Virus record (IMG/VR): IMGVR_UViG_3300045988_162788
Coordinates: 1-32,255 of that record
Origin: a virus
DNA: 32,255 nucleotides
Direction: 5' to 3' (one strand)
Shown here piece after piece: positions 1,154 to 32,255 of the stretch. Within the stretch, counting starts at the first letter, position 1. Each line of letters starts with the position of its first letter. Below the pieces are notes generated by a model. The model was not told the origin of the DNA, ran no database searches, and worked only from the letters and a program-made list of their open reading frames with translations. The position numbers and the translations under genes were made by a program.

Positions 1154-1167
1154 GGTTGATTCCTTTC

Positions 1168-5420: not shown

Positions 5421-5421
5421 G

Positions 5422-5907: not shown

Positions 5908-5929
5908 TTTACTCCTTAATTAACGGGTC

Positions 5930-12421: not shown

Positions 12422-12447
12422 ATGGTGTCCTCTCAATCAGATCAGGG

Positions 12448-13014: not shown

Positions 13015-13027
13015 GGGTGGCCACCTC

Positions 13028-14125: not shown

Positions 14126-14140
14126 GACACTCGTTCCTTC

Positions 14141-14629: not shown

Positions 14630-14655
14630 ATCTCCTCCTTAACCTCAGCAGTTGA

Positions 14656-15597: not shown

Positions 15598-15625
15598 TCT
15601 TTATTCCTCCAATTAGGTATAGATA

Positions 15626-15652
15626 AAGCCCCTCTTGAGGTAAGAGGGGCTT
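15626..15652 (-). promoter_or_regulatory. Perfect 11-bp-stem hairpin between the scaffold and capsid genes
   Basis: The arms are aagcccctctt and aagaggggctt with loop gaggt. No strong U-tract follows. Confidence 0.5.
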
Positions 15653-15659
15653 GTAGGCT

Positions 15660-17203: not shown

Positions 17204-17211
17204 GCCGCCTC

Positions 17212-19910: not shown

Positions 19911-19924
19911 AGAGCCTCACCTCC

Positions 19925-20425
19925 TTATCCGGCGGCTTGCGCCTCCTCGATACGACGCCGGCGAAGAGCCGCCAACTCGTCAAGCGCGCTCATCTTCGGT
20001 TTCACAGCCTCACTCAGCTTCGCGATATCAGCCGCAGCCTCACGCTCAGCATTCAGCAGAGCCGCCACATCACGAGGCCCAGCAACAATCAGAGCCGCGC
20101 GAGCCTTGTAGAGGCGCCACCGCGCGGACTCCAACGGGTCCTCATGCGTCGGCACAGCCACATCACGGGTCGCGCCGTAGGCGACCATCTGCTCAACGAC
20201 CACGGAGCCAGCTTGTCCAACGGCTCGGACAACAGGCGCAGAATCAGGAGCACCATTCACGGGTTCCGGCGGCCGCTCCGCAGCCTTACGATCACGCGCC
20301 GCCTTCGACGCGGCACGCTCCGCAGCCTTACATTCCGGGCAAGGAGGCTCACCCCGGCGACGGTGACGCTTCGCCGCCGCCGTAGTCCCACACGGGGCAA
20401 GCTTGCGGCTCTTTTTCTCAGCCAT
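19925..20425 (-). CDS. Terminase small subunit
   Basis: 166 aa, immediately upstream of terL. It has the N-terminal CGT...RH..RGE..C..C DNA-binding motif common in actinophage small terminases. Confidence 0.7.
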   Translation of the reverse strand: MAEKKSRKLAPCGTTAAAKRHRRRGEPPCPECKAAERAASKAARDRKAAERPPEPVNGAPDSAPVVRAVGQAGSVVVEQMVAYGATRDVAVPTHEDPLESARWRLYKARAALIVAGPRDVAALLNAEREAAADIAKLSEAVKPKMSALDELAALRRRRIEEAQAAG

Positions 20426-20601
20426 AAATCCCCCTCTCTCATGGGAATTTTTGGGTTATGAGCCCCGTGGGGGGATGTCACTATGACCGAAGGGGGAAAC
20501 TTGACCCCATAGGGGGTAACCCCCCGGGGTACGTTTCCCAATCCGTCATCATCTGAAAACCAAATCCGTTTCGTAGTCATTGAACAAAAAGCTGTTTGGA
20601 T
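20426..20601. other. Candidate cos / packaging-recognition region
   Basis: This is the 176-bp non-coding gap between HNH and terS. It contains three self-complementary C-run/G-run elements: ccccgtgggggg (20463..20474), ccccataggggg (20505..20516) and ccccccgggg (20520..20529). Confidence 0.4.
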
Positions 20602-20892
20602 TCACCATGCTTGCGTGGTCTTTGGCGCTCGTACTTGGTGTGCGAGTCGTTTGCGTCCGCGTCGGCTGTTGCATCGTCGGTGTGCTGGTGCGAGGTCGCC
20701 GAGCAGATTGCCGCCGTTGGCGAGTGCGTCGAGGTGGTCGGCGGTGAAGGCCAGCGGGTGAGTGTAGGGCAGGCTCATATCGATTGGTTTGCCGCAGAGG
20801 TGGCAGGGCCAGCCGTTGTCGTTGGTTGCTTTGCGGAGTGCTGCGGCTTTGGCGCGGTAGGTGCGGTCACTGTATTTTGTCGCAGTCGTCAC
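20602..20892 (-). CDS. HNH endonuclease (packaging-associated)
   Basis: 96 aa with a GTG start. It shows CHLCGKPI...TADHLDALANGG...APAHRRCN, a His-Me finger pattern, and is adjacent to terS. Confidence 0.85.
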   Translation of the reverse strand: MTTATKYSDRTYRAKAAALRKATNDNGWPCHLCGKPIDMSLPYTHPLAFTADHLDALANGGNLLGDLAPAHRRCNSRRGRKRLAHQVRAPKTTQAW

Positions 20893-21076
20893 AGTCGCAC
20901 CTGCTTCCGATGATGGCGCGTAGTCGAGCCTTGCTGATGGTGAGGGAGAAGTAGCTCTCGTTTTCGAAGATTGCTTGTCCCCAGCTGATGTCGACGTCCC
21001 ATTCTGTGGGGAATCGCTTTTGGAGTGTCTTGAAGATTTGTTCTTCTTCTTCGTCGGTGAAGCTTCTGCGGCACAT
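20867..21076 (-). CDS. Hypothetical small protein (paralogue of 21087..21251)
   Basis: 69 aa, with SD GGGAGGA before the ATG. It has an N-terminal TDEE.E motif at residues 7-12 and a C-terminal CDCDDCD. Confidence 0.6.
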   Translation of the reverse strand: MCRRSFTDEEEEQIFKTLQKRFPTEWDVDISWGQAIFENESYFSLTISKARLRAIIGSRCDCDDCDKIQ

Positions 21077-21086
21077 GGTGTCCTCC

Positions 21087-21251
21087 CTAGATAACGGGGG
21101 GTGTAGATGAGGTTACTGTCACGACAATAACGACTTGTTTGTCGTCAAAAATCTGTTGCTCAAAGATTATTTCGCTGGCACCTGGGTAACAATCTGAAAT
21201 CAGTGCCAGCACCTTCTCACGTTCTTCGTCCGTGAGGCGTCGTGTGTGCAT
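21087..21251 (-). CDS. Hypothetical small protein
   Basis: 54 aa from the ATG at 21251, with SD GAGGAA 5-6 nt upstream. This is the internal start of ORF 21087..21275. It shares the TDEE.E motif with the next gene. Confidence 0.6.
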   Translation of the reverse strand: MHTRRLTDEEREKVLALISDCYPGASEIIFEQQIFDDKQVVIVVTVTSSTPPVI

Positions 21252-21261
21252 TGCGTTTCCT

Positions 21262-21429
21262 CTAGGTCGTGGCAAGGCATAGCGTTACAAGGGCTGTTGC
21301 GAAACTCATCACTCCTGCAAGGATTGTGGTGAAGAATCGTGACGCCGTTATTTTGAACGTCAGTGCGGAAGCAGTAACTGTCAGGTTTGTGCCGATTGTG
21401 GCGGCAAAGAAGGCGATTAGTATCTGCAT
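21262..21429 (-). CDS. Small hydrophobic protein (55 aa), first gene of the late operon; absent from the ORF track
   Basis: The sequence reads AAAGAGGTGAAAATG, then MQILIAFFAATIGTNLTVTASALTFKITASRFFTTILAGVMSFATALVTLCLATT, then TAG. The stop is embedded in the SD of the next gene. Confidence 0.55.
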   Translation of the reverse strand: MQILIAFFAATIGTNLTVTASALTFKITASRFFTTILAGVMSFATALVTLCLATT

Positions 21430-21449
21430 TTTCACCTCTTTGGGAACAA

Positions 21450-21484
21450 AAAGCCCCCGACACCTGACGGTTACCGGGGGCTTT
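21450..21484 (-). terminator. Rho-independent terminator between the early operon / candidate late promoter and the late genes
   Basis: Minus-strand RNA reads AAAGCCCCCG, then a 15-nt loop, then CGGGGGCUUU followed by UUGUU. The SD of the first late gene begins about 5 nt after the U-rich tract. Confidence 0.75.
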
Positions 21485-21500
21485 GGGCACAGCTGTGCCC
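21485..21500. promoter_or_regulatory. Perfect 16-bp palindrome GGGCACAGCTGTGCCC in the predicted late leader
   Basis: The palindrome is perfect. It lies between the candidate -10 element and the terminator stem, so it could be a protein-binding site or a 6-bp RNA stem with an AGCU loop. Confidence 0.5.
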
Positions 21501-21508
21501 GATAACTT

Positions 21509-22111
21509 TTATTTTACGAAAATTTCCGCAGCTTGCAAGTGGGCGAGCCGCTTGATTGCTTCATACCCTGTCTCAGTCCAGCCGCAGGCTCCGCAGCACG
21601 TCATGACTCGGGTCGAGGGCTGTTCCTCTGGGCGGACGATGATAGCGAGCGCGTCGTCTACTTTTGTGGTGCCGTCGGTGAGTTGGCGGGTGTTGGTTGC
21701 TTTCTTGCATCGGGGGCAGGGGGTGTTGTGGAGGTGGACGGTGGTGTGGTTGAGGGTTCGGATGCGTCGTGTCCATTCTGTGGCGTAGATGGTTGCGACG
21801 GTTCGGTTTTCGTTGGTTGCCCATTCTCGGACGGCTTGTTTGAGCGTGGGGTTGGGGGTGGTGGTGTGTGGGGTGGTGCGGTTGCGGATGTCGTGTTCAA
21901 GTTCGATTGCGTCGAGGTTGCAGATTGCGCCGGTGTTTTTGTTTTTGCCGCTGCGGCCTGTTCCGTTTCTGTCGGTGACTGCGATGCGGAGTTGGTCGAG
22001 GAGTGGCATTTCTTGGATGACGGTGGGGGTGCCGTCGTCGAGTTTGCGGATGCGTGGGGTGCCGTCGCAGAGGGCGGTGATCATGCTTTCGAGTGTTGGG
22101 TTGGGGTGCAT
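21509..22111 (-). CDS. Cys4 (zinc-ribbon-like) protein, last early gene; candidate late-gene regulator
   Basis: 200 aa with SD GGAG. It has CPRC (132-135) and CCGAC (172-176). I recognise no homology; the regulatory role is inferred from position only. Confidence 0.6.
   Translation of the reverse strand: MHPNPTLESMITALCDGTPRIRKLDDGTPTVIQEMPLLDQLRIAVTDRNGTGRSGKNKNTGAICNLDAIELEHDIRNRTTPHTTTPNPTLKQAVREWATNENRTVATIYATEWTRRIRTLNHTTVHLHNTPCPRCKKATNTRQLTDGTTKVDDALAIIVRPEEQPSTRVMTCCGACGWTETGYEAIKRLAHLQAAEIFVK
21511..21538 (-). promoter_or_regulatory. Candidate late promoter (TTGCAA - 16 nt - TAAAAT)
   Basis: On the minus strand the -35 TTGCAA is at 21538..21533 and the -10 TAAAAT at 21516..21511. 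Both lie within the last codons of CDS 21509..22111. Confidence 0.55.
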
Positions 22112-22181
22112 GGGTTGCTCCTGTGCGTTTGTTGGGTGGCGCGGCGGCTGGTGTGGCCGCCGTGCCGTGGTGTGTGGTGTG

Positions 22182-22412
22182 TTAGTTGATGGGTTTGTAG
22201 GTGTAGTTGGGGAGGGTGGGGTGTTTGGTGGTTAGCTCATTGGATTTGTAGTGGAGGGTGTAGTGTTCCCAGTTGGTGGGGAGGAGGGAGCGGAAGAGGC
22301 GTTCGATTTCGTTGCGGCGGTCTCCTGGGGTGTTGGGGTCGTAGTCGATGGTGGCGCACATGATGGGGTGGTCGGGTGCGGTGTTGGTGTAGATGGCGAG
22401 GCGTTCTAGCAT
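22182..22412 (-). CDS. Hypothetical protein
   Basis: 76 aa from the ATG at 22412, with an ATGCTAG overlap to the Bro-N gene stop. This is the last part of the otherwise spurious 266-aa ORF 22182..22982. Confidence 0.55.
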   Translation of the reverse strand: MLERLAIYTNTAPDHPIMCATIDYDPNTPGDRRNEIERLFRSLLPTNWEHYTLHYKSNELTTKHPTLPNYTYKPIN

Positions 22413-23083
22413 TGTTCGGTTCCTTCCTTGGTGAGGTTTTCGGTTTTCCATTCGAGGTATCGCGCGAGGCGTTCGAGGTCGAGCGCGTGTTTGACGGTGT
22501 TTTCGTCTGCTGCGGGGTTTGCGAGGATTCCTTCGCAGAGGGTGTGTACGTGTGAGGTGACGTAGCGGGCTTGGTCTGCGAGGTTGGTGTTGATGTCCTT
22601 TCGGGTGGGAGTGTTGTGGGGTTGGGGGGTGAGGAGGTCGTCGATGCCGGGGACGGTGTTTGCAGAATCGGCGAGCGCGGGCGCTGCGGCGAGCGCATGA
22701 CCGCCTGCTGTGCCTGCGGTGCGGGGCTGGTAGGTGGTGGGGACGGGGCCGGCGAGGAGTTCGTGTTCGTGTTGCTTGATCCAGGCGGCGGTGTTGAGGC
22801 GTTCGGTTTTGTTGTGCTTGAGGCGTGCGTACTTGATGCGGCGGGCGAGCGCGTTGGTGGGGGCGTAGAGGAGTTTGTTTTTGCCGTTGGAGGCGTATTC
22901 GATTCGGTTGTTGTCGGGGATTTGGGATTGGAGGGAGTTGCCCTTGTAGCCGGCGGCGCGGGCGATGTCGAGGATGCACCACCAGACGCGGGTGGGGTTG
23001 TGGAGTGCGTCGTGCTGGACGGCGAAGCGGATGGTGTAGCCGTTGTGGGTGGTGGTGCCGGGGAGGTAGGTGTTGGTGTTCAT
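22406..23083 (-). CDS. Bro-N domain protein (antirepressor-like)
   Basis: 225 aa from the ATG at 23083, with SD AAGGAG. The N-terminal GYTIRFAVQHD...RVWWCILDIARAAGYKGNS resembles the Bro-N / KilA-N-type DNA-binding domain. Confidence 0.7.
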   Translation of the reverse strand: MNTNTYLPGTTTHNGYTIRFAVQHDALHNPTRVWWCILDIARAAGYKGNSLQSQIPDNNRIEYASNGKNKLLYAPTNALARRIKYARLKHNKTERLNTAAWIKQHEHELLAGPVPTTYQPRTAGTAGGHALAAAPALADSANTVPGIDDLLTPQPHNTPTRKDINTNLADQARYVTSHVHTLCEGILANPAADENTVKHALDLERLARYLEWKTENLTKEGTEQC

Positions 23084-23094
23084 GGTGTTTCTCC

Positions 23095-23532
23095 TTAGTG
23101 GGTGGTGGGCTCGATGATGATGCGCACGCCAGGGTTGGGGTGGAGCTTGTCGGTGTAGTTCTTGGTGGCGATGAGGTGGGTGCATCGTGCGTCGTCGTCG
23201 ATGATGTCGGCGGCGGTGAGGGAGTCGAGGACGGCTCGGGTTAGTTTGTCGACGTCGGGTTTGACGGCGTGGATACCTTTGCCGTTGGGGTCTCGGTATC
23301 GGGGACGTTGGGGCGGGGAGAACCTGAAATCGAGGTAGATGGTGAAGGGGCCGGGGACGCGGCGGCCTGCTGCTTGGGCGGCGAGCGCGGTTTGCAGGGT
23401 GTTGCGCCAGGGTTTGAGTCTTTTGTTGGCTTCGATGAGGCGAGCGCGGGTGCCGTGTCTGATTGCTGTTTTGGAGCCTTGGGGAATCGGTGTTCCTACG
23501 ATGAAGAAGGTAAGCGGCTCTGGTTTGGTCAT
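23095..23532 (-). CDS. rusA: RusA-family Holliday junction resolvase
   Basis: 145 aa. It shows FFIVGTPIPQGSK, a KPW motif, and KPDVDKLTRAVLDSLT...IDDDARC, typical of RusA. Confidence 0.9.
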   Translation of the reverse strand: MTKPEPLTFFIVGTPIPQGSKTAIRHGTRARLIEANKRLKPWRNTLQTALAAQAAGRRVPGPFTIYLDFRFSPPQRPRYRDPNGKGIHAVKPDVDKLTRAVLDSLTAADIIDDDARCTHLIATKNYTDKLHPNPGVRIIIEPTTH

Positions 23533-23542
23533 TGGGTTGTCC

Positions 23543-23896
23543 TTAGTGGAAGAAGCTGCTGACGAAGGTGGCGAGGATGATGATGAGGAAGAACGCGGCG
23601 GTGAGCCAGATCTGGGTGTTGCGTAGCTTGTCGCTGAGGTCGGCGATGCGTTGGTCTTGCCAGTTGGCTCGGCGGTTGGCTTCCTTGAGAGTTTCGGTAT
23701 GTGTCTTGAGTTCTTCGGTGTGTTCCTTGAGGCGGGCGGCGGTTGCTTCGGTTGAGGTGTCGTAGGCGGTTTCGAGGGTGGTGAGTCGTGCTGACAGGGT
23801 GGGGCTGTTTTTGACTTCGGTGACGGCCTGGGTGAGGGCTTCTCCTGCGAGGCGCTTGATGTCGTTGTAGCTGGTGGGCTGGCTGTTGGTGGTCAT
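23543..23896 (-). CDS. Tail-anchored coiled-coil membrane protein
   Basis: 117 aa: a helical N-terminal part plus a C-terminal TM (NTQIWLTAAFFLIIILATFVSSFF). Confidence 0.65.
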   Translation of the reverse strand: MTTNSQPTSYNDIKRLAGEALTQAVTEVKNSPTLSARLTTLETAYDTSTEATAARLKEHTEELKTHTETLKEANRRANWQDQRIADLSDKLRNTQIWLTAAFFLIIILATFVSSFFH

Positions 23897-23920
23897 TGTG
23901 ACTCCTAAAGTGTTGGGTGT

Positions 23921-24463
23921 TTAGAACGGGGGCTGGTCGGTGGTGTACGGGGTGGGGTATGCCGGTGCTTGCTGGTATCCCTGCGGCGAGCGCGGTGCCG
24001 GCGTCTGTGCAGCCGGTGCCTGCGGTGCGGGGTGCTGCTGGTATCCGTTGGTGGGCTGTGCTTGGTATCCGTGGGGCGGGTACTGGGTGGGTACTGCGGG
24101 GCGCGGTGCCGGGCGGCCGGTGGATCCGATGGGTTTGGGGTTGGTGGGTACGATGCCGACGACGGATGCGATGAAGCGGAGCTGGTTGCCTTCGGTGCCG
24201 TCGGTGCGGGTGTAGGTTCGCATTTCTTCGATTCCTCGGATGATGACTCGTGCTCCCTTGGTGAGGTTTTCGGCGATGGTTTCGGCGTTCTTGTAGGCGG
24301 CGACGCGGCGCCAGGTGGTGTTGATGGTCTCGTAGGTGCCGTTGTCGAGTTTGCGGACGCGGTTGTCTGCGACGGAGAAGTTGCAGACGGTGCCGCCGCC
24401 GGGCAGGTTGTGCAGTTCGATGGTTTCGCCGACGTTGCCGACGATGGTCAGTTCGTTAGACAT
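23921..24463 (-). CDS. ssb: Single-stranded DNA-binding protein
   Basis: 180 aa. It has an OB-fold N-terminus (LTIVGNVG...WRRVAAYKNAETIAENLTKGARV), a Gly/Pro/Gln-rich linker and an acidic tip, DQPPF. Confidence 0.9.
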   Translation of the reverse strand: MSNELTIVGNVGETIELHNLPGGGTVCNFSVADNRVRKLDNGTYETINTTWRRVAAYKNAETIAENLTKGARVIIRGIEEMRTYTRTDGTEGNQLRFIASVVGIVPTNPKPIGSTGRPAPRPAVPTQYPPHGYQAQPTNGYQQHPAPQAPAAQTPAPRSPQGYQQAPAYPTPYTTDQPPF

Positions 24464-24956
24464 GGGTGAGGTCCTTTCCGATGGTGTTTGCGATTGCGTG
24501 GACGTTTGCGGCGTTAGCGTTGGTGAGTGCCTTCAGCTGTGGGCGGGGGTATGGGGGTAGGGGCTGGGCGGTTCCTCGGTGGTGTGGGTCGAGGGATTCC
24601 AAAATTCGGTTGTAGCGGTTGATGAGGGCGGTAATGTTGACCCAGTCAGTCTCGCTGTAGACGTCTTCCTTTTCTTCGTTGATGAGTGCCATGAGGCGGG
24701 TGAGGGTGCGCTTCTTGTGGGCGAGCGCGGCATCCTTTTCCTTGAGGCGTTCCCAGGCTTTGGCGATGTCGGGGATTTGCGGTGCCCCGTAGAGGCGGGT
24801 GGCGTAGAGCTCTTTGATGAGGTCGGTGCTGCGTTCTGCGGGGATTTCTCCGACGAAGATGCCTGCGGCGGCTTCCTGCATGGGGTCGAGGGACTCAATG
24901 CGGGTATCCGTGGCGATGAGCAGTAGCCAGAATTGTCGGAATTCGTCGAGTGTCAT
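24456..24956 (-). CDS. Hypothetical protein (replication-module position)
   Basis: 166 aa, between the initiator and SSB, with an 8-nt overlap to ssb. No motif recognised. Confidence 0.65.
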   Translation of the reverse strand: MTLDEFRQFWLLLIATDTRIESLDPMQEAAAGIFVGEIPAERSTDLIKELYATRLYGAPQIPDIAKAWERLKEKDAALAHKKRTLTRLMALINEEKEDVYSETDWVNITALINRYNRILESLDPHHRGTAQPLPPYPRPQLKALTNANAANVHAIANTIGKDLTHV

Positions 24957-24965
24957 GGGGTGCTC

Positions 24966-25880
24966 CTAGGTGAGGGCGTAGTAGTTGGTGGGTGGTAGTT
25001 GTTGATGAGGGGGGTAGGGTGTGTTGGGGTTGAGGGCGTTGACTGTGCCTGCTGCTCGGCGGGCGAAGCTGCCGGCGGCAGGTTTGACCTGGTATGAGTC
25101 GGGTTCGTCGAGCCAGTCGTCTTGGTTGAGCCAGGTAGCGGCGTGCTTGATGTGTTCCTCTGCGCGGCCGAGCTTGATGACGTATTCGCGGTAGCCGGCG
25201 GCGGCGGTGTTGAGTTGCTCTTCCGTGCCGCCGCGTTTCTTCGCTTTTTCCCAGGCTTTGAATGCGGCGGCTTTTCCTCGGTTGGAGGGGTAGATCTTCC
25301 AGAACTCTTCGAAGTTTGGCGGGTATTCGCCGAGCGGCCGCTTTTTGGGCTTTGCAGGCTTGGGGGCGGGCTCTGTCTCGGTCAGCTCGAAGAGCTGATC
25401 ATGAGTGTTATCTTCCCTTGGTTCTCTTCCTTGGTTCTCTTCTATTGTTAGTGTGCGGATTTCCGCATAGGGGGTATGCGGATTTTCACATAGGGGGTGT
25501 GCGGATTTCCGCATAGGGGGTGTGCGGATTCCTGCATAGGGGTGTGCGGATTCCGGCATAGGGGGTGCAGGCTCCGTCATGGGGAGCGAAGTCGGCGGCG
25601 GGACAGGCTCAGACAAGTGGAGAAGGTACCGATTTGAACCCTGCCCTCCACCCTCGAGCTCCCGGTTAATCCGCGTGATTATTCCCTTCTCTTCGAGGAT
25701 TCCTAGCACCTCCCATACGCTCCGGTAATAAATCCCCGTCATCTCACCGATACGTCGCGCCGACGGAAAGCACATACCCGTAGTCGCGTTCATGCAATCA
25801 GCGAGTGCCATCAGCACCACCTTTTCACGCGGGGTGAGTCCGGTGACTTTCCACGCGGCTATGAGGTGCCCGTAGCTCAT
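24966..25880 (-). CDS. Replication initiator (lambda O-like organisation: N-terminal wHTH, iteron-encoded linker, C-terminal domain)
   Basis: 304 aa. It has an N-terminal winged-helix-like LTPREKVVLMALADC...ARRIGEMTGIYYRSVWEVLGILEEKGII. Five iterons lie inside the coding sequence. It also has the C-terminal FEEFWKIYP...KAWEKA motif seen in phage replication proteins. Confidence 0.7.
   Translation of the reverse strand: MSYGHLIAAWKVTGLTPREKVVLMALADCMNATTGMCFPSARRIGEMTGIYYRSVWEVLGILEEKGIITRINRELEGGGQGSNRYLLHLSEPVPPPTSLPMTEPAPPMPESAHPYAGIRTPPMRKSAHPLCENPHTPYAEIRTLTIEENQGREPREDNTHDQLFELTETEPAPKPAKPKKRPLGEYPPNFEEFWKIYPSNRGKAAAFKAWEKAKKRGGTEEQLNTAAAGYREYVIKLGRAEEHIKHAATWLNQDDWLDEPDSYQVKPAAGSFARRAAGTVNALNPNTPYPPHQQLPPTNYYALT
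25416..25441. repeat. 13-bp tandem duplication ccttggttctctt x2 in the lower-GC flank of the iterons
   Basis: The exact direct repeat lies at 25416..25428 and 25429..25441, adjacent to the T-rich stretch tctattgtta. It is a candidate unwinding element. Confidence 0.55.
25451..25564. repeat. Five tandem 22-23-bp iterons (putative origin of replication)
   Basis: The units begin at 25451, 25474, 25497, 25520 and 25542, with consensus gtgTGCGGAttTCCGCAtagggg. Each contains an internal inverted repeat. Confidence 0.8.
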
Positions 25881-26182
25881 GTCAGCACTCCGATTCGTTC
25901 GATGTTAAGTTCGCACCGCCATTCCGATGCGGAGGGGACGATTTTGAGGAAGGTGACCAGCCCTGCGTTGCGCAGCTCTTTGCAGAGTTTGTTGGCGGTG
26001 GGCTGGGAGATGCCCAGGTGTTGGGCGAGGCTGGCGGGGGAAAGGTCGCTGTGCCCGTTGGTGTCTGAATGGAGGGTGATCCAGTAGAGGGCGCGGCGGT
26101 GGGTTTCGCTCATGCGGCAGTTCGTGGCTTGGTCGAGCCAGGTGGCTTCTGCAAGGGGGCCGAGGATATCTGCGTCAAGCAT
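25877..26182 (-). CDS. Winged-helix (MarR-like) DNA-binding protein
   Basis: 101 aa from the ATG at 26182, with GGAG 7 nt upstream. It contains LSPASLAQHLGISQPTANKLCKELRNAGLV and has an ATGA overlap with the initiator gene. Confidence 0.65.
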   Translation of the reverse strand: MLDADILGPLAEATWLDQATNCRMSETHRRALYWITLHSDTNGHSDLSPASLAQHLGISQPTANKLCKELRNAGLVTFLKIVPSASEWRCELNIERIGVLT

Positions 26183-26390
26183 GTTCAAGCTCCATTCGGC
26201 AGGAGGGGCAGGGCGCGCATACGCCGGGTAGTTTCGCCGGTGTGCGCTGCGGGGTGCGGTCGTAGGTGATGAAGTATCCGGACAGGTCAATGTCGACGGT
26301 CTTGCCGCAGAGAGCGGCGGCGCGGTGTTTGCCGTAGGCGGCGGCCTGGACAAGGGCGGCATGCTCGACGGTGTGCATGACGTGCCGCAT
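26175..26390 (-). CDS. Hypothetical small Cys-rich protein
   Basis: 71 aa with a C-terminal CAPCPSC. It overlaps the next start by 8 nt. Confidence 0.5.
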   Translation of the reverse strand: MRHVMHTVEHAALVQAAAYGKHRAAALCGKTVDIDLSGYFITYDRTPQRTPAKLPGVCAPCPSCRMELEHA

Positions 26391-26407
26391 GGTGACTCCT
26401 AGGGTGG

Positions 26408-26926
26408 TTAGTGTTTCTTGGTGAGGCGAGCGCGGCGGGCGCTCAGCCAGGCTTGGAGGTTGTGGAGGTTCTCGATGTCTCGGGGGCTGTCGAGGGTGTC
26501 CTCGGGGACTGGGTCGCTGGTGGGTGCGGGGCGGTAGATGAGCTCTGCAGGTGCCTTGGTGGAGCCTTGCATTTCCTGTGCCTCGGCGTCTCGGCGTTCT
26601 CTCTTACGTTTCCGTCGGTTGCAGATTTTGCACCCGTCGGTGTACGCGTTGATGTCGCCGCCGCATCCGCTGCAGATTTTCCGCGGGCCGGGGATGCCTC
26701 TCGGGTCTCCCATCCTGAGCCAGTAGTCGTGACGGTGGGCGCAGCTGCGGCACCGCTGGTTCCTCGTCAGCCATGGCTCGCCGCACATCCGGCAGGTTTC
26801 CGGATCCGGTGGACGCAACGCCCGCTTATCGCCGGCACGCCGCCATGCATTGTGGCGGTTGGAGCAAATCCTGCATCCACGAGTCCGCTCTTCGACAGGT
26901 GCCCCGCAGCTAGTACAGGTACTCAT
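26408..26926 (-). CDS. Protein with three tandem zinc-ribbon repeats and a basic segment
   Basis: 172 aa with SD AAGGAAAGGA. The repeats are CTSCG-x8-CRIC-x2-RH, CRMCG-x8-CRSC-x2-RH and CSGCG-x8-CKIC-x2-RK. Confidence 0.7.
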   Translation of the reverse strand: MSTCTSCGAPVEERTRGCRICSNRHNAWRRAGDKRALRPPDPETCRMCGEPWLTRNQRCRSCAHRHDYWLRMGDPRGIPGPRKICSGCGGDINAYTDGCKICNRRKRKRERRDAEAQEMQGSTKAPAELIYRPAPTSDPVPEDTLDSPRDIENLHNLQAWLSARRARLTKKH

Positions 26927-27119
26927 CGCGATTCCTTTCCTTCATGTCGTTCACCCAAGAACCCAGCAGAATGGCGGGCGCTGCGGGGATCAACGAGGCG
27001 ACGAGCAGTACGCCGCGGATCCCGATATCTTCCTGAGCGCTCGCGATACCGGCGATGGTGACGGTTGCGATGACAAGCGCCCAGATGAGGAGTTTGGTGT
27101 TTCTGATGGTGCGTTCCAT
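26910..27119 (-). CDS. Small membrane protein (2 TM)
   Basis: 69 aa with SD AAGGAA. Its hydrophobic segments are LLIWALVIATVTIAGIASA and GVLLVASLIPAAPAILLGSWV. Confidence 0.6.
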   Translation of the reverse strand: MERTIRNTKLLIWALVIATVTIAGIASAQEDIGIRGVLLVASLIPAAPAILLGSWVNDMKERNRDEYLY

Positions 27120-27129
27120 TGGTGTTTCC

Positions 27130-27639
27130 TTACGGGACGATGAGGAGAGCGAAGATGGTGAGTGCTGCGGAAAGCCAGATGATGGTGTTGACCCATGCGA
27201 GCTGGATGAGTCGCTTGTTGGTTTCGTTGAGCTCGTCGCGTAGGAGGTCGGTTTTCTGCTGGAGGGCGTCAGCGCGACCGTTCACCTTGTTTACGTAGGC
27301 GGTGAGCTGGGCGATTGCCTCCATGTGTTCCTTGCTGGTGTGTTGGAGGAAGGCGACGGCGCACTCAACTTCGGCCTGCTTGCGTTCATTCCTGGCGACG
27401 CGTTGCATGGCGTGGGCGACATTCTGTCGGGTGTAGTCGTTCTGTTCTTCGAGGCGGTCGTGCCAGACGATAAGCCTGGTGTTGAGGTAACAGGTTGTGT
27501 TATGCAGCTCGGCGGCGGCGATGTCGATTCTGGCGATGTCGTCGATGATGCCTTCGTGGTTGTCGATGATTGTCTGGATGGCGGTCTGGCGGTGCCGGCG
27601 GCCTGCTGCGCGGTCGCGCTTGGTCTTGGTGGCTGTCAT
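27130..27639 (-). CDS. Tail-anchored coiled-coil membrane protein (paralogous anchor to 23543..23896)
   Basis: 169 aa: a helical body plus a C-terminal TM (NTIIWLSAALTIFALLIV). Confidence 0.7.
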   Translation of the reverse strand: MTATKTKRDRAAGRRHRQTAIQTIIDNHEGIIDDIARIDIAAAELHNTTCYLNTRLIVWHDRLEEQNDYTRQNVAHAMQRVARNERKQAEVECAVAFLQHTSKEHMEAIAQLTAYVNKVNGRADALQQKTDLLRDELNETNKRLIQLAWVNTIIWLSAALTIFALLIVP

Positions 27640-27654
27640 GGCGTGTTGTCCTTC

Positions 27655-27683
27655 CTGACTGGTGTGGGGTGGGCGGTTAGGAT
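27655..27683 (+). promoter_or_regulatory. Candidate promoter of the nested plus-strand gene (CTGACT - 17 nt - TAGGAT)
   Basis: The -10 TAGGAT ends 7 nt before the ATG at 27691, a geometry typical of leaderless actinobacterial mRNAs. Alternatively, the GGA within it could act as a weak SD. Confidence 0.45.
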
Positions 27684-27690
27684 TGTTGGT

Positions 27691-28212
27691 ATGGATTTCT
27701 CAACTCTTTTTTCTGGCGGTTCAGCGATTGCGGCTATCGTCTCTGTCTTTTTCGCGATTGTTTCCTGGTACCAGTCCCTTGGCTCGAAGAAAGCGAAGGC
27801 TAAGGCTGAGGAGGCTCACAAGGCGGCGTTAGAGATGCGTGATGCCGCGGTTCGTGCTGCTGAGGCTGCGGAGGAGCATGCCCGGCAGATGGAGCAAATC
27901 GTTGCTGAACAGCAGAAGCAGTCCGAGTCTCAGGGCAAGATTGAGTCTCACCTGTGGAGGCCCACATTTGAGCTGACTCCGGATAGAGGTGGCACCTACC
28001 TGCTGCGCAACGTCACTGGTGAATCTGTTGAGGTTCTTGAGGTGGCGAATCTCGATGAGTTCGTCCGCTGTGACCAGGTTCAGCAGGTGTTCCGCCCTGG
28101 AGAGTCGCTACGCATCTTCATGTTTGGTGCTTCCGGTAAGCCGTTGCCGTCGAACCTAGAGCTACGAATCCGTGGGGTCGATGAGGTCGTCCCCGTCCCG
28201 ATTCGCCGATAG
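27691..28212 (+). CDS. Membrane-anchored protein encoded antisense to the early operon (moron; candidate superinfection-exclusion/defence protein)
   Basis: 173 aa from the ATG at 27691. It has an N-terminal TM (GGSAIAAIVSVFFAIVSWY), an Ala/Glu helix and a beta-rich C-terminal ~85 aa. It is the only plus-strand gene between 160 and 29968. Confidence 0.7.
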   Translation: MDFSTLFSGGSAIAAIVSVFFAIVSWYQSLGSKKAKAKAEEAHKAALEMRDAAVRAAEAAEEHARQMEQIVAEQQKQSESQGKIESHLWRPTFELTPDRGGTYLLRNVTGESVEVLEVANLDEFVRCDQVQQVFRPGESLRIFMFGASGKPLPSNLELRIRGVDEVVPVPIRR

Positions 28213-28353
28213 CTCACGTTCCTTTTCTTCCTTCTTCTCTTCCCAGGAATCTTTGAGCGTCCTGAAGCAGAAGAATCCGGAGACGATAGCGCCGGCAACG
28301 CTGATGAAGAAGCAGACAGCATTGAATACGAGGTTGAACTGGTCGGGTTCCAT
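28162..28353 (-). CDS. Small membrane protein
   Basis: 63 aa with TM NLVFNAVCFFISVAGAIVSGFFCF and a charged tail. Its 3' end overlaps the convergent gene 27691..28212 by 51 nt. Confidence 0.5.
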   Translation of the reverse strand: MEPDQFNLVFNAVCFFISVAGAIVSGFFCFRTLKDSWEEKKEEKERELSANRDGDDLIDPTDS

Positions 28354-28375
28354 TAATGTTTTCCTTCCTGGGTGG

Positions 28376-28921
28376 TTAGAGGGCCATGAGCTGGTTCTGG
28401 CTGTGCCGCATGAGGTGTTCAGCCATGCGGAGGATGCAGGCGTCGACGACGTCCTGTGAGAAGGTGAGGCCTGCTTCGTCCTTGATTTGGTCGGTGGCGA
28501 AGTGCTCGTGGAGTGTGATGCCGCAACCGGTGGGGCAGGGCATGTGGATGTTCATCCGGTGCTTGAACAGGGGGTTCTCGACTAGTTCGAGGCGCTTGTG
28601 GGTGGGGTGGGTTCGTCTGCGTGCCCACCAGAGGTTGGCGGTTTGGATTGCGAGTTTTGCTTGTTCAGTGAGCTTGTCCCATGCGGCGGGGTGAGCATCT
28701 TTGATGTGGGCGGGGGCGGCTTCGGCTGCGGAGATGTAGGGGCTCTTGTTGGCGGGTAGCTTGGCGTAGGCTGTCTCGCAGATTTCGCACCATGCCGCCG
28801 GTGTGGTTTGGCGTGTTTTGAGGCGGGAGTCGTGGCGGCTGATGATGGGCATTCGTACCCACCAGATGCCTTGTGCGTATTTGGTGGCTAGTTTGTGTGC
28901 CACGTCATTGGCGGTTTTCAT
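28376..28921 (-). CDS. Hypothetical protein
   Basis: 181 aa with SD AAGGAG. It has Cys/His clusters (CEIC, HMPCPTGC...HEH). No family recognised. Confidence 0.65.
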   Translation of the reverse strand: MKTANDVAHKLATKYAQGIWWVRMPIISRHDSRLKTRQTTPAAWCEICETAYAKLPANKSPYISAAEAAPAHIKDAHPAAWDKLTEQAKLAIQTANLWWARRRTHPTHKRLELVENPLFKHRMNIHMPCPTGCGITLHEHFATDQIKDEAGLTFSQDVVDACILRMAEHLMRHSQNQLMAL

Positions 28922-28952
28922 GGTTAGTGCTCCTTATTCGTTGGTGGTGTGG

Positions 28953-29204
28953 TTATCCCTGCTTCAACTGGTCGAGTAACTTACGAATCCGCTCCTCCCT
29001 CTTCTTTTCTGCCTCTTCCTCCTCCTCTGGGGAGAGGGGTAGGAGGAGCCCTCGGATGGTGAATTCTTTGACGTCGATTCTGGAGTCGTAGGTGATAGCC
29101 ACTTCGACATTTCCGAGGTGCATGCCCGCTGCTATCTTCCGGACGATGTCGATGTTTCTCTCTCCGATTTCTCGGAGAAATTCGCCCTCATCGTGTAAGT
29201 CCAT
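28953..29204 (-). CDS. Hypothetical small protein with an EEEEE tract
   Basis: 83 aa with SD AAGGAA. The local sequence is of lower GC. Confidence 0.6.
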   Translation of the reverse strand: MDLHDEGEFLREIGERNIDIVRKIAAGMHLGNVEVAITYDSRIDVKEFTIRGLLLPLSPEEEEEAEKKREERIRKLLDQLKQG

Positions 29205-29215
29205 CGCTGGGTTCC

Positions 29216-29440
29216 TTATCCGTTGTTGGTGTCGTCGTGGGAGCTGGCGTGGAGCCTGGATTCTTCGAAGAGCTCTTTAAGTGCATCTTGGATGAATAGG
29301 GAGCTGAGTGATTCAACGTCTTTGGTTTTTTCCTCCCCGCAGGTGACGCATTTGAGCTTGAGGACCACGCCTACGACCTTCATGTTTCGGGTGAGGGGTA
29401 GGACGGTGATGGTGAAGGGGGAACCTTTGTGTTCTTTCAT
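29216..29440 (-). CDS. Hypothetical small protein
   Basis: 74 aa, preceded by SD TAAGGAAACACCA and then the ATG. It contains CVTC. Confidence 0.6.
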   Translation of the reverse strand: MKEHKGSPFTITVLPLTRNMKVVGVVLKLKCVTCGEEKTKDVESLSSLFIQDALKELFEESRLHASSHDDTNNG

Positions 29441-29450
29441 TGGTGTTTCC

Positions 29451-29672
29451 TTAGTTGTTGGTGTGGGTGACGGGTAGCTGGCTCAGCCAGGCGGTGACGG
29501 CTTTGCTGGTGTAGTAGACGCGGCCTCCGCGCTGTCCAGCACTGGTTCGGATGAACTCTGGGCCTGTGCGTGCCGTTCGCCAATCGGCGAGGGTGGCGGC
29601 GGAAACGCCGAGAGCTTCGGCGAGTTCATCGGGCGACCAGATGGTCAGTCCCTCGTGTGGGATGGTTAGCAT
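29451..29672 (-). CDS. Excisionase-family / MerR-like HTH DNA-binding protein
   Basis: 73 aa. The sequence ELAEALGVSAATLADWRTARTGPEF...VYYTSKAVTAWL matches the HTH_17/Xis-type pattern. Confidence 0.65.
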   Translation of the reverse strand: MLTIPHEGLTIWSPDELAEALGVSAATLADWRTARTGPEFIRTSAGQRGGRVYYTSKAVTAWLSQLPVTHTNN

Positions 29673-29728
29673 TTTTACGTCCTTTACATGTGTATAAATC
29701 CCATACTAGGGACAAGGGGGTAAAAAAA

Positions 29729-29968
29729 TTAAGCGGTGGTTAGTTCGGGAATGTGTTCCTCGAAAAACCAGCCAGGGCTCACTTTGAGTACTGCTGCCAA
29801 GTTCCAGAGCTCGGTGGCTCGGATTGGCGAGTTGTGGTTTTCAAGGGCTGAGAGTCGAGCTCGGCTAATGCCTGCTTTAGATGCCACCTCTGTTCGGGTG
29901 AGTTTGGTCTTGGCGAGTGCGAGCGAGAGATTTTCCGCTAGGATTTCGCCAATCTGTCGGGTGCTCAT
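29729..29968 (-). CDS. Cro-like XRE-family HTH regulator
   Basis: 79 aa from the ATG at 29968, with AAGGAGG 6 nt upstream. It contains LTRTEVASKAGISRARLSALENHNSPIRATELWNLAAVLKV and is divergent from the cI-like gene. Confidence 0.8.
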   Translation of the reverse strand: MSTRQIGEILAENLSLALAKTKLTRTEVASKAGISRARLSALENHNSPIRATELWNLAAVLKVSPGWFFEEHIPELTTA

Positions 29969-29997
29969 GGCCACCCTCCTTTCCTGGTGTTGTAATT

Positions 29998-30027
29998 AGT
30001 TTATGTCTCTGGTTTGGGACAAGTCAA
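29998..30027 (-). promoter_or_regulatory. Candidate early (cro-side) promoter TTGACT - 18 nt - TAAACT
   Basis: On the minus strand the -35 TTGACT is at 30027..30022 and the -10 TAAACT at 30003..29998. This leaves a 29-nt leader containing the SD. Confidence 0.5.
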
Positions 30028-30036
30028 GCGAAAATC
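30021..30036. repeat. 16-bp operator-like element aagtcaagcgaaaatc overlapping the cro-side -35
   Basis: An exact inverted copy lies at 32118..32133. Confidence 0.5.
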
Positions 30037-30047
30037 TGAAATTTTTT

Positions 30048-30063
30048 AAAAATCTAGATTTTT
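30048..30063. promoter_or_regulatory. Perfect 16-bp palindrome aaaaatctagattttt (candidate operator)
   Basis: It lies in the 121-bp divergent intergenic region. A third AAAATCT half-site is at 30031..30037. Confidence 0.5.
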
Positions 30064-30089
30064 TTCTTGTTTTTATATACACTGAGTGC

Positions 30090-30518
30090 ATGAAGCAAGA
30101 ACGTAAAACCACCGCAGGCCGCCGTAGTACTGGCCCCGCAAACCGCTTTAGCCAACTGCTGAACGAGGAACTGCGCGCCGCGCAATCACGCCGCCGGCTG
30201 ACTCTGCGGGCGCTAGAGGAATTGTCAGGGGTTAGCCGCAATCGCCTTTCCCTGACTTTGAACCTCGATTCGTCCCCGCTCAATACGAACGAGTTTGAAC
30301 TCATCTGTAGGGCGCTTGATCTGAGTCCTGCTGAGGTATGTTTCCGCGCAGAAGCGGCATTGCAGAAAGAACTGGCGGCAGAAACCTCTTCAGCGTCTGA
30401 TAAGGAACTGGCTGCGCAGATTTTGGCACGTGCCGAAGCTGCAAGGCAGGCCGGATATGCTCTAGCCGCACACCCCGCAGATAAGGTCATTACCGACGAC
30501 GGCAACTGGACAGCATAA
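30090..30518 (+). CDS. CI-like XRE-family repressor
   Basis: 142 aa from the ATG at 30090. It contains LTLRALEELSGVSRNRLSLTLN...NEFELICRALDLSPAEV. It has no SD, and an AT-rich TATATAC lies 10-16 nt upstream. Confidence 0.8.
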   Translation: MKQERKTTAGRRSTGPANRFSQLLNEELRAAQSRRRLTLRALEELSGVSRNRLSLTLNLDSSPLNTNEFELICRALDLSPAEVCFRAEAALQKELAAETSSASDKELAAQILARAEAARQAGYALAAHPADKVITDDGNWTA

Positions 30519-30573
30519 GACAACCCGCGGGCGCGAAGAAAGGGATAGCGCACCCGGCAATTCACTGAACTTC

Positions 30574-30975
30574 ATGAACCAAATTCCATATAACCCCGAA
30601 ACGCATGCGAGCCAGCTTGGTATCCGCATCATTGACGCCTGCCTACCTGCAGGCACACTAGCGCTCTGGGACGAGACAACAAGGACGATTCTCGCAAGCC
30701 CAGGACTACTACACCGCCAGCGCCGATGCGTCATCGCACACGAACTGGCACACGCCGTCAACGGCGACACTCACGCCCCCATCGACGACGTTGCCGCGCG
30801 CAAACGCGAGCGCAGGGCAGACCTGACCGCTGCCGGCTGGTTGCTTGATCCTGTTGCGGTGCGGACGGCGTTGGCTGTGTCACCCGATTCTTTGAACGCT
30901 GCGGCGGCTGATTTAGATGTGACCCCGAGGATTCTCTCTGCGTGGTTGGAGGGGAGGAAAGGAGAAAGATGGTGA
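30574..30975 (+). CDS. ImmA/IrrE-family metallopeptidase (anti-repressor protease)
   Basis: 133 aa with the HEXXH motif (AHELAH) followed by ...RERRAD..AA.LL, typical of the DUF955/ImmA family. It lies immediately downstream of the repressor. Confidence 0.8.
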   Translation: MNQIPYNPETHASQLGIRIIDACLPAGTLALWDETTRTILASPGLLHRQRRCVIAHELAHAVNGDTHAPIDDVAARKRERRADLTAAGWLLDPVAVRTALAVSPDSLNAAAADLDVTPRILSAWLEGRKGERW

Positions 30976-32039: not shown

Positions 32040-32054
32040 GGTCACTATTTACTC
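32039..32054 (+). repeat. 16-bp direct repeat aggtcactatttactc (candidate integrase arm-type site)
   Basis: Exact copy of 71..86. It overlaps the int stop codon. Confidence 0.55.
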
Positions 32055-32200: not shown

Positions 32201-32255
32201 ATAAAGAGATGTTCACTATTGTGCTTTCTTCCCCTGTAATTTCAAGGGTTAGGTG
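32201..32255. repeat. Terminal direct repeat, copy 2 (identical to 1..55)
   Basis: Exact 55-bp identity with 1..55. This is consistent with an assembly overlap of a circular molecule. Confidence 0.95.

Follow-up and report, generated by a model that had tools for sequence, protein, structure and literature searches.

The question raised by this phage genome is why its genes fall into two classes of third-position usage, and why one class gives way to the other where it does. The window, i.e., the whole stretch of 32,255 nucleotides analysed, comes from a temperate phage, the host genus being Rothia. The preliminary description, which listed three causes and chose none, had divided the genes into C/A-ending and G/T-ending sets, and this bimodality was confirmed with K3, the third-position (G+T-A-C) fraction computed per gene, in which the keto bases (G, T) are opposed to the amino bases (C, A): the per-gene histogram forms two clusters, with few genes between -0.2 and 0. 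The early/replication arm (20602-29974, minus strand), with 21 genes from HNH to cro, including by Pfam DUF7341, RusA, SSB, an HTH_36 replication initiator and an Xis-like HTH, has a C/A-rich sense strand, with 59-95% of codons ending in C or A and K3 from -0.19 to -0.89; the earlier wording "almost only" C/A was overstated for several genes, among them the replication initiator (63%) and 26910-27119 (59%). The G/T class was borne out by the tyrosine integrase gene int (30942-32039, plus strand, Pfam Phage_integrase), which has extreme G/T wobble (K3 +0.77), and by the mildly G/T plus-strand gene 27691-28212 (+0.33), whereas the late (structural) arm from terS to the tail genes (2267-20425, minus strand) is only mildly G/T in its sense strand (+0.05 to +0.51, 19 genes) and similar to the host average. 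The late lean is greatest beside cos, in terS (+0.51) and in terL (+0.41), the latter being homologous to actinophage terminases.

The difference persists when amino-acid content is controlled. At four-fold sites the A/C/G/T fractions are.21/.61/.11/.06 in early genes,.12/.27/.33/.28 in late genes (early versus late, chi-square p = 3.8e-177) and.02/.08/.62/.27 in int, the last being near the complement of the early composition, on the opposite strand; C ends.90,.58 and.25 of NNY codons, and A ends.57,.18 and.06 of NNR codons, in early genes, late genes and int, respectively. The Leu choice between TTG and CTC, a first-position difference, also follows the bias, which extends to codon positions 1 and 2, affects the amino-acid content of the proteins, and continues through the C/A-rich intergenic spacers within the early operon (22112-22181: A.30, C.50, G.20, T 0). 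The skews along the window reach GC +0.46 and AT -0.50 at 21.5-25 kb, and the GC3 skew is about -0.7. Since two-fold codons, the first position of Leu, spacers and amino acids are all affected, and the usage of host ribosomal genes differs, the bias is nucleotide-level and not tRNA adaptation; the two codon classes are two faces of one strand asymmetry, amino versus keto.

The compositional switch is located in the HNH/terS gap (20426-20601), a probable cos region with 25% of each base, and its abruptness, already claimed in the preliminary description, is seen in codon-by-codon wobble strings. The cumulative GC skew is lowest (-3.68) at 19.5-20.5 kb, that is, at cos, and the GC skew is positive from cos round the circle to about 2.5 kb; the sign flips again roughly opposite cos, at about 2 kb. 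Rightwards from cos, through the early genes and int, the plus strand is keto-rich at silent sites, and leftwards the minus strand is mildly so; on either side, the strand that begins (5') at cos is the keto-rich one. The early-arm skew of the window peaks beside cos (gradient rho.48, p.027), a gradient of the same sign in 8/8 relatives and strong in G006, and the late-arm gradient from cos is weak and not significant; the strength of the asymmetry differs about six-fold between the arms. The only origin-like element, sitting within the early arm, is a set of five 23-bp iterons (25451-25567; TRF score 178) that lies in the gene for the replication initiator and may be a lambda-type origin. Comparison of flanking-gene skews gave no sign change there, and the bias does not follow simple replication-fork polarity from the iterons.

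Both regimes are maintained at present. In five related prophages, the polarised singletons at four-fold sites gave, for early-arm transversions, C>A 39 and A>C 23, with the complementary G>T at 0/82 sites and T>G at 1/31 sites; for the late arm, G>T 10 and T>G 10, with C>A at 0/190 and A>C at 0/48 sites. Transition rates were G>A.122 versus C>T.042 in the early arm and C>T.142 versus G>A.039 in the late arm. The two arms thus have mirrored spectra, and the mirroring extends to transversions that leave the C/A or G/T class of a site unchanged; selection on the C/A versus G/T axis alone would not separate such within-class changes. The equilibria predicted from the observed rates (early C.55/A.17, late G.33/T.33) reproduce both styles, which is why both are taken as currently upheld. 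On early-arm tip branches, amino-to-keto changes exceed keto-to-amino ones (69 versus 25, p 6e-6), which suggests either fixation bias, i.e., selection, or skew decay during prophage residence.

Several segments depart from this layout. The cI-like repressor gene (30090-30518, plus strand), previously placed in the C/A class, is neutral (K3 -0.01), while in immA (30574-30975, plus strand, Peptidase_M78) the earlier assignment of the 5' part is upheld for the first ~87 codons only (K3 -0.42), the style breaking near 30835 into a G/T type (+0.52) that runs on into int. Neutral cI and a 5' immA that is C/A in its own sense are found in relatives too, and since both lie on the plus strand they must count as exceptions to the strand rule. 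The int homologues of related phages are G/T-type or neutral, those of one clade being neutral despite an adjoining C/A-type early arm; among int homologues overall an extreme C/A style also occurs. In the lysis cassette (719-2073, minus strand, Pfam Amidase_2), a region poorly conserved in the prophage of host genome G001, the endolysin gene is C-rich (K3 -0.13) and the holin-like gene begins as C-type and becomes G/T-type near codon 65 (about 958). Gene 27691-28212, with no Pfam match and with substitutions by codon position of 36/27/49, which weakly support its frame, belongs to a cassette at 27.69-28.37 kb that is present in L119 and L122 and missing in many relatives, whose flanks adjoin each other; this patchy presence makes the gene part of a moron-type insertion. 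Relatives about 90% identical retain the sharp in-gene style breaks, and exchange among relatives affects the cassettes for immunity, int, lysis and the moron. Mosaic joints are supported as the explanation of the breaks in immA and the holin gene, of neutral cI and of the moron cassette.

The same switch at cos was present in all Rothia relatives examined. The early modules of the window and the G001 prophage have no DNA similarity but a style in common, other Rothia genomes have it too, in the regions upstream of terL homologues that are 32-61% identical, as a C/A sense style it recurs upstream of terL across Rothia prophage lineages whose terL identities span 32-82%, and the early arms examined have one sign throughout. 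Relatives from Streptomyces and Nocardioides lack the switch, as do two viral contigs related more distantly. The host genes themselves vary along the C/A versus G/T axis, and those of a sister genome of equal GC do not: K4, the (G+T-A-C) fraction at four-fold sites, has an SD of.28 in G001 versus a sampling SD of.075, with correlated GC and TA four-fold skews (r.72), and in the sister genome an SD of.10 and r -.01. The host axis tracks same-strand neighbours (r.48) more than opposite-strand ones (r -.13), and a replichore-scale version of the asymmetry was not seen in the host chromosome. The polA gene has the C/A style in the R. mucilaginosa group and the G/T style in G002; elsewhere it is neutral. 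In both G003 and G002 it is nevertheless co-directional with replication.

A strand-level mutational cause is favoured because int mirrors the early genes and the spectra of the arms are mirror images. Among the causes listed in the preliminary description strand-specific mutational bias is accordingly the best supported, although the pattern does not follow non-template-strand deamination. A strand-asymmetric mutational process anchored at cos, perhaps reinforced by selection for unstructured early mRNA, is put forward tentatively, its probability being judged somewhat below even. As to the physical process and the strand exposed, we infer strand-asymmetric, single-strand-type DNA damage or repair, visible as C to T and G/T exchanges on whichever strand is exposed. 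It would arise while the phage replicates, recombines or packages its DNA, in a cycle that begins at or near cos; the candidates are replication from the cos ends, whether by strand displacement or dependent on recombination, and an origin at cos that has escaped recognition. Its strength would apparently be far greater towards HNH and the early genes, and the bias may be augmented by selection that keeps early mRNA unstructured and poor in G and U. The local departures (cI with 5' immA, 3' immA with int, the moron and the lysis cassette) would be recombination joints with DNA of another style. Against this process stand the absence of a sign change at the sole origin-like element, within the early arm; the plus-strand exceptions cI and 5' immA; the neutral, not mirrored, int homologues of one clade; the inequality of the arms, which no simple symmetric model predicts; the early tip-branch flux, the same-strand pattern of host neighbours and the non-significant late gradient; and a problem of polarity, since the strand left single-stranded by canonical 5' resection would be the other one.

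It is possible, though rather doubtful, that selection acts instead on the sense strand at the RNA level, keeping early and regulatory transcripts C/A-rich and G- and U-poor, the proposed benefits being weak folding for fast coupled translation, Rho-dependent lysogen silencing and few U/G-specific endoribonuclease sites. The early mRNA has indeed little self-pairing, as had been suggested: its sense RNA folds at -0.215 kcal/mol/nt, in comparison with -0.285 when the early proteins are recoded with host usage, -0.348 for late genes at equal GC, and -0.34 to -0.35 for the early-arm antisense RNA. The recurrence of the C/A sense style upstream of terL, the C/A-type start of the oppositely oriented immA and the likeness of same-strand host neighbours fit such selection; the tip-branch excess is classically expected where weak selection maintains a bias in the face of mutation, and the A/C exchanges, about 40% of early four-fold changes, fit filtered transitions. 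However, the C/A style includes HNH, and it is cos, rather than the promoter-like site at 21538-21511, that marks the switch; early G>T and T>G are nearly absent where they should be neutral or favoured, and the late arm mirrors this; cI is neutral; and the style of host polA differs between species, unlike gene-specific selection. The int and late styles would need separate causes, and for int, whose RNA gains no folding benefit (-0.360 native versus -0.362 recoded), a second, coincidentally complementary one, so the earlier suggestion of selection for unstructured early mRNA agrees with the folding data and the tip-branch excess but cannot explain int. Less probable is a heritable, self-perpetuating compositional polarity of DNA segments and mobile elements of the Rothia lineage, produced by an undescribed host-specific process, in which recombination would carry the sign along and the early and late regions would be separate gene pools, each locked in one polarity. 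The spread of K4 and the correlated skews in the host but not in its sister genome, the varying polA, the int homologues of all three styles and the persistent in-gene breaks are in line with it; yet the NucS, UDG and EndoV content of Rothia does not differ from that of controls, the single sign of every early arm examined is unexpected if the sign is arbitrary, and its symmetric version, avoidance of self-pairing RNA, fails, as G/U-rich RNA folds as strongly as recoded controls.

Two further readings are considered very improbable. A pure mosaic relic, with arms from ancestors of unlike composition and a contrast now decaying, could draw on the joints of differing style inside genes and on the swapped cassettes, and mosaic ancestry as raised in the preliminary description does account for the sharp local boundaries; it fails for the early/late contrast, given that recent-branch substitution rates predict two different equilibria, that early modules lacking DNA similarity have the same style, and that the contrast is found upstream of terL homologues in other Rothia genomes. 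Slightly less credible still is translational bias, with classes read by different tRNA sets or adapted to host optimal codons. By Watson-Crick pairing, C endings match anticodons with G34 and A endings those with U34, and a strong NNC preference is common to early genes and host ribosomal genes. However, host ribosomal and elongation factor genes, with C/T endings and NNR codons ending in G, have NNR-A of.10-.16 and four-fold T of.30-.33, against.57 and.06 in early genes, so that in the host comparison neither phage class fits; the phage has no tRNA genes, and the biased spacers, codon positions 1 and 2 and amino-acid content also speak against class-specific translation.

The asymmetry resembles several known systems in part. 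In replication-associated skew of bacterial chromosomes and phages the leading strand is G+T-rich and the cumulative minimum lies at the origin; here, too, GC and TA skews co-vary, the sign flips at cos and again roughly opposite, at about 2 kb, and the effect is partly independent of gene orientation (int). Unlike replication skew, the GC3 skew is far above the usual, the arms are very unequal, the flip is at cos and not at the iterons, cI and 5' immA deviate, and the host chromosome lacks a replichore-scale version. The heavy/light asymmetry of vertebrate mitochondrial DNA stems from strand-displacement replication, with damage to the strand left single-stranded, and is similar in its A/C-rich sense strands, very G-poor at silent sites, in a skew graded from a start point and in a C to T excess on one strand. 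The phage differs in being double-stranded and tailed with HNH-terminase cos packaging, in not being known to replicate by strand displacement, and in a weak A>G versus T>C asymmetry with prominent G/T-type transversions. Phi29 and adenovirus, genomes of end-initiated strand displacement whose skew switches between two halves, likewise have the G/T-rich strand with its 5' end at the terminus and domains meeting in the interior, but this phage encodes no terminal protein or protein-primed polymerase and has cos-type ends beside terminase and HNH. Transcription-associated asymmetry (C to T on the non-template strand) is matched by the late genes and int, with their keto-rich sense strand and sense-strand C>T excess, whereas in early genes the keto-rich strand is the template, to a far greater degree. 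Codon usage is reported to differ between the early and the late genes of phages (PMC5683454; for lambda, PMC5737525), and these reports appear to read the differences as adaptation of translation or expression. Synonymous usage by temporal gene class is common to those phages and this one; the axis here is the C/A versus G/T strand axis, non-coding DNA is included, and the switch falls at cos and not at a transcription-unit boundary.

The bias also bears on open reading frames. The A-poverty of the plus strand had been held to produce many long spurious frames in the early arm, but the stop-poor strand is the T-poor minus strand (16 versus 33 stops per 1000 codons on the plus strand), and plus-strand frames of at least 100 aa are no denser there than in the late arm (about 1.2 versus about 1.5 per kb).

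The 32,255-bp genome is complete and lies on a single contig; no tRNA genes were found in it, and no near relatives of either arm were returned by megablast among the deposited phage records. It encodes a large terminase of actinophage type, for which genes 80-95% identical occur in genomes of Rothia mucilaginosa and Rothia sp. as well as in oral viral contigs, and because of the matches in Rothia genomes the host of the phage is predicted to be Rothia. The gene names used in the preliminary description were backed by Pfam for the HNH, RusA, SSB and HTH_36 replication initiator genes, as well as for the cro-type and cI-type HTH regulators, the Xis-like HTH_17 protein, ImmA (Peptidase_M78), the tyrosine integrase and the amidase endolysin. 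The only origin-like element is a group of five 23-bp iterons (25451-25567) inside the initiator gene.

The two wobble classes proposed from the sequence are real, with the per-gene third-position composition splitting into two clusters. Codons ending in C or A make up 59-95% in the 21 minus-strand genes from HNH to cro (20602-29974, the early arm), 25-47% in 19 late genes (from terS to the tail genes, 2267-20425, minus strand) and 12% in int (30942-32039, plus strand). The early/late contrast persists with amino acids controlled: in the early genes.90 of NNY codons end in C and.57 of NNR codons in A, with four-fold A/C/G/T of.21/.61/.11/.06, versus.58,.18 and.12/.27/.33/.28 in the late genes (chi-square at four-fold sites, p = 3.8e-177). 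The four-fold composition of int,.02/.08/.62/.27, is a near-complement of that of the early genes, from which it is still distinguished by chi-square (p =.013), and for leucine CTC leads in the early genes (.70) but TTG in int (.50). At the HNH/terS gap (20426-20601), the probable packaging site cos, the switch is as abrupt as was claimed, being visible codon by codon and coinciding with the minimum of cumulative GC skew.

Several details have to be corrected. The gene cI (30090-30518, plus strand), previously counted as C/A-type, is neutral in its wobble use, with a third-position (G+T-A-C) fraction, K3, of -0.01. In immA (30574-30975, plus strand) the C/A character is confined to about the first 87 codons (K3 -0.42). 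The G/T preference of the late genes has the direction described but is a mild lean that resembles the host average. The long spurious plus-strand ORFs ascribed to poverty in A had been placed on the wrong strand: in the early arm there are 33 stops per 1000 codons on the plus strand versus 16 on the minus strand, and the density of plus-strand ORFs of 100 aa or longer is not above that of the late arm. It is the T-poor minus strand (20602-29974 and 30771-32045) that carries 14-16 stops per 1000 codons, and as a result of this depletion long false ORFs open up in its other frames and across from int, such as those at 22182-22982 (266 aa) and 30771-31694 (307 aa, opposite int), both on the minus strand.

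The asymmetry is a bias at the level of nucleotides and not a codon or tRNA effect. The short spacers within the early operon are likewise C/A-rich and nearly free of T (spacer 22112-22181: A.30, C.50, G.20, T 0), and codon positions 1 and 2 are also shifted. In the ribosomal-protein and elongation-factor genes of the host the four-fold sites favour C and T, and NNR codons end in G; A ends.10-.16 of their NNR codons versus.57 in the early genes, and four-fold T is.30-.33 versus.06. Translational or tRNA adaptation to the host was rejected because the host optimum differs and the spacers and the first two codon positions are biased too, so that class-specific translation, one of the causes offered at the outset, finds no support.

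The expectation of weakly self-pairing early mRNA was borne out, the folding energy being -0.215 kcal/mol/nt versus -0.348 for late genes of the same GC. The early proteins recoded with host-average codons give -0.285 versus the native -0.215 kcal/mol/nt, while no reduction is found in the late genes (-0.348 native versus -0.345 recoded) or in int (-0.360 versus -0.362). The reduced early folding is, however, an automatic product of the skew and no proof of selection. When folding is computed for single-stranded DNA, each strand of the early arm is about 20% weaker than the late arm, which is again a consequence of the skew and not evidence of selection. A symmetric avoidance of RNA self-pairing, with two complementary stable states, was rejected, for neither int nor the early-arm antisense folds more weakly than controls; G/U-rich RNA folds normally because of G-U pairs. 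A promoter-like site, recognised by its consensus match, lies beyond int at 32218-32245 on the minus strand (TTGAAA, 16 nt, CACAAT), aiming leftwards into the int antisense; RNA from this candidate would be rich in C and A and would fold very weakly (-0.188 kcal/mol/nt).

The polarity flips at cos and not at the promoter-like site 21538-21511, nor at the iterons, whose flanking genes are both C/A-rich in sense (K3 -0.60 and -0.58). A replication-fork skew with a sign change at an iteron origin was thus discarded. The plus-strand skew is positive over the stretch that runs from cos round the circle to about 2.5 kb and negative over the remainder, so that on either side of cos the 5' end of the keto-rich (G/T) strand lies at cos. 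In the early arm the skew tends to be strongest beside cos (rho.48, p.027), and the gradient keeps its sign in each of the eight relatives compared, reaching significance only in one (G006); in the late arm it is not significant (rho -.16). The strength of the two arms differs roughly six-fold. Both int (K3 +0.77) and gene 27691-28212 (+0.33; plus strand) follow the strand, unlike cI (-0.01) and the 5' part of immA (-0.42). Such a polarity might arise from a bidirectional origin at cos, from strand displacement starting at nicked or free cos ends, or from recombination initiated at ends. In lambda, end-processing enzymes reach only the end that is not bound by terminase, and a similar single accessible end would fit the stronger effect on the HNH side.

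The flip is shared by relatives. Among the viral contigs, every relative that has a terL identity of about 82% and includes upstream sequence flips upstream of terS, and in other Rothia genomes C/A-rich sense strands lie upstream of terL homologues of 61%, 59%, 33% and 32% identity, weakly so in the 33% case; the region upstream of a 28% homologue is without a clear signal. The flip is absent in the Streptomyces and Nocardioides relatives and in two more distant viral-contig relatives. Small opposite-strand gene calls inside the early arms of the relatives were left out of the evidence, as crude callers picked antisense ORFs in skewed regions.

Current substitution was read from polarised singleton changes at four-fold sites in an alignment of five related prophages, the window itself not being a source, and the counts are small. 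In the early arm 39 C>A and 23 A>C changes were recorded, versus 0 of the complementary G>T at 82 sites and 1 T>G at 31 sites, with G>A at.122 versus C>T at.042; in the late arm there were 10 G>T and 10 T>G, versus no C>A at 190 sites and no A>C at 48 sites, with C>T at.142 versus G>A at.039. The spectra of the two arms are thus mirror images: on these small counts the C>T asymmetry is about three-fold in each arm with mirrored polarity and the G/T transversions are strongly asymmetric, while the asymmetry of A>G versus T>C is weak (.113 versus.194 early,.083 versus.081 late). The rates predict two equilibria (A/C/G/T.17/.55/.16/.11 early and.14/.21/.33/.33 late), so that both regimes are being kept up now, in one genome. 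Changes within the amino (C/A) or the keto class should be neutral to selection on that axis; their strong asymmetry points to a mutational input that differs between the strands and affects the plus strand of the early arm but the minus strand of the late arm. On the tip branches of the early arm, amino-to-keto changes outnumber the reverse by 69 to 25 (p 6e-6), versus 36:36 in the late arm; this fits either weak selection holding the skew against mutation or a decay of the skew during prophage residence.

The asymmetry is real, strong and actively maintained, and is a variant of known compositional skews. As its mechanism, a mutational asymmetry anchored at cos is favoured tentatively and with less than even confidence; the mutational input deduced from the within-class changes speaks for it, while cI and the 5' part of immA, whose own sense strands are neutral to C/A-rich here and in relatives too, are the main exception to a pure strand model. 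The same two genes are the main support for selection linked to the sense strand, which we consider rather unlikely; the early tip imbalance would fit it in part, and the reduced folding of early RNA adds no proof. An additive model with a strand and a sense term fails, by arithmetic on the K3 values, to fit the early arm, the late arm, cI/immA and int jointly. Transcription-associated asymmetry, by deamination of the non-template strand, holds for the late genes but is reversed in the early ones (sense C.61, A.21). The gene cI is expected to be transcribed in lysogens of temperate phages; it is not G/T-rich, and antisense transcription exposing the plus strand in lysogens was rejected on this ground. 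Mosaic ancestry, also suggested in the preliminary description and taken here with amelioration, does not account for the early/late contrast: a prophage in the Rothia sp. genome G001 matches the window at 80-90% identity in the late genes and the int/immA region and has no DNA similarity to it across 21.1-27.1 kb, and yet its early genes are equally C/A-rich, while the tip rates give two equilibria. Differences between early and late codon usage in phages are reported in general terms in PMC5683454 and PMC5737525, and the literature searches returned no account of such a pattern in Rothia or Rothia phages.

The host chromosome shares the axis, which embeds the phage pattern in a phenomenon of the host lineage. 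In a 460-kb sample of G001 (contig C7, 100001-560000), called with a crude gene caller that gave about 2 wrong calls in 32 when checked on the phage, the (G+T-A-C) fraction at four-fold sites, K4, ranges from -0.72 to +0.74 between genes, with an SD of.28 versus a sampling SD of.075 and an operon-level spread. GC and TA skews at four-fold sites are correlated there (r.72), and the style of neighbours correlates on the same strand (r.48) and not on opposite strands (r -.13). A sister genome of equal GC has an SD of.10 and no correlation of GC and TA skews, and another Rothia species lies in between. Housekeeping genes of G001 occur in both tails, polA and trp genes being C/A-type and leuA, carB, coaBC and era G/T-type. 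Among polA loci in 30 relatives the style varies with the species: the gene is C/A-type in the R. mucilaginosa group (K4 -0.39 to -0.62) and G/T-type in G002 (+0.25), other species are neutral, and a further Rothia group has values of about -0.1 to -0.2. Host replication direction was rejected as the cause, as polA is co-directional in the complete genomes G003 and G002 and yet of opposite styles, and no replichore-scale skew was seen in 20-kb host samples. Repair genes did not differ between Rothia and controls, NucS and UDG being present and EndoV absent in both. A heritable polarity specific to the host, to which the shared axis would lend itself, appears improbable as the mechanism in the phage. 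A broader reading is possible but doubtful: R. mucilaginosa-group Rothia and their phages would possess a process peculiar to the lineage, by which silent sites acquire a strong and heritable strand polarity of C/A versus G/T, operon by operon or module by module. This polarity would depend neither on the direction of chromosomal replication nor on translational selection, and in the phages it would be anchored at cos with the early sense strand always C/A-rich.

Should that lineage-specific process be true, it would be a regime of strand-asymmetric mutation, repair or selection previously undescribed in bacteria, seen as phage codon classes and as a wide spread of host gene styles that a sister genome of equal GC does not show; the host-wide styles (K4 -0.7 to +0.7, changing between species for a given gene) would form a new case of mutation bias and codon usage. 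If the cause is mutational, the polarity and gradient would be a record of single-strandedness along a cos phage, of the strand concerned, its place and its duration, giving a sequence-only readout of the replication and recombination mode for phages of an uncultured-phage-poor oral genus. If it is selective, selection can mould entire early operons so that their RNA is poor in G and U, unstructured and sensitive to Rho, which bears on prophage silence and a quick start. In either case annotation is affected, since the stop-poor, T-poor strand gives rise to long false ORFs, and neither gene finders nor codon-based host predictors will read such genomes correctly.

Locally, the idea of mosaic ancestry is right. 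Style breaks occur in immA near codon 88 (about 30835, plus strand) and in a holin-like gene (719-1153) near codon 65 (about 958), and both are probably recombination joints. The cassette 27690-28375, with gene 27691-28212 (plus strand) and a small gene at 28162-28353 (minus strand), is present in two of the compared loci (L119 and L122) and missing, with adjacent flanks, from most relatives, and is thus a moron-type insertion. The int homologues fall into three clades, of extreme G/T, G/T and neutral style. These exceptions are most plausibly explained by recombination that joined DNA of unlike style, and mosaicism is thus retained for such boundaries.

Some minor observations concern the host genes and more distant phages. 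In 260 host genes of G001 contig C7 the 3' half averages 0.11 more keto-rich than the 5' half at four-fold sites. In another Rothia genome, G011 (contig C1, 300001-411685), opposite-strand neighbours are anticorrelated in style (r -0.60, n=20; r -0.13 in G001), which suggests a polarity at the level of the DNA strand in that species, unlike G001. Distant integrase homologues on four viral contigs of 66-68% GC (L129, L131, L132 and L135) are of extreme C/A type, with four-fold C of.68-.74 and T of.00-.04, so that extreme wobble skews are not limited to Rothia phages; three of these four contigs share a metagenome data set with several Rothia contigs.
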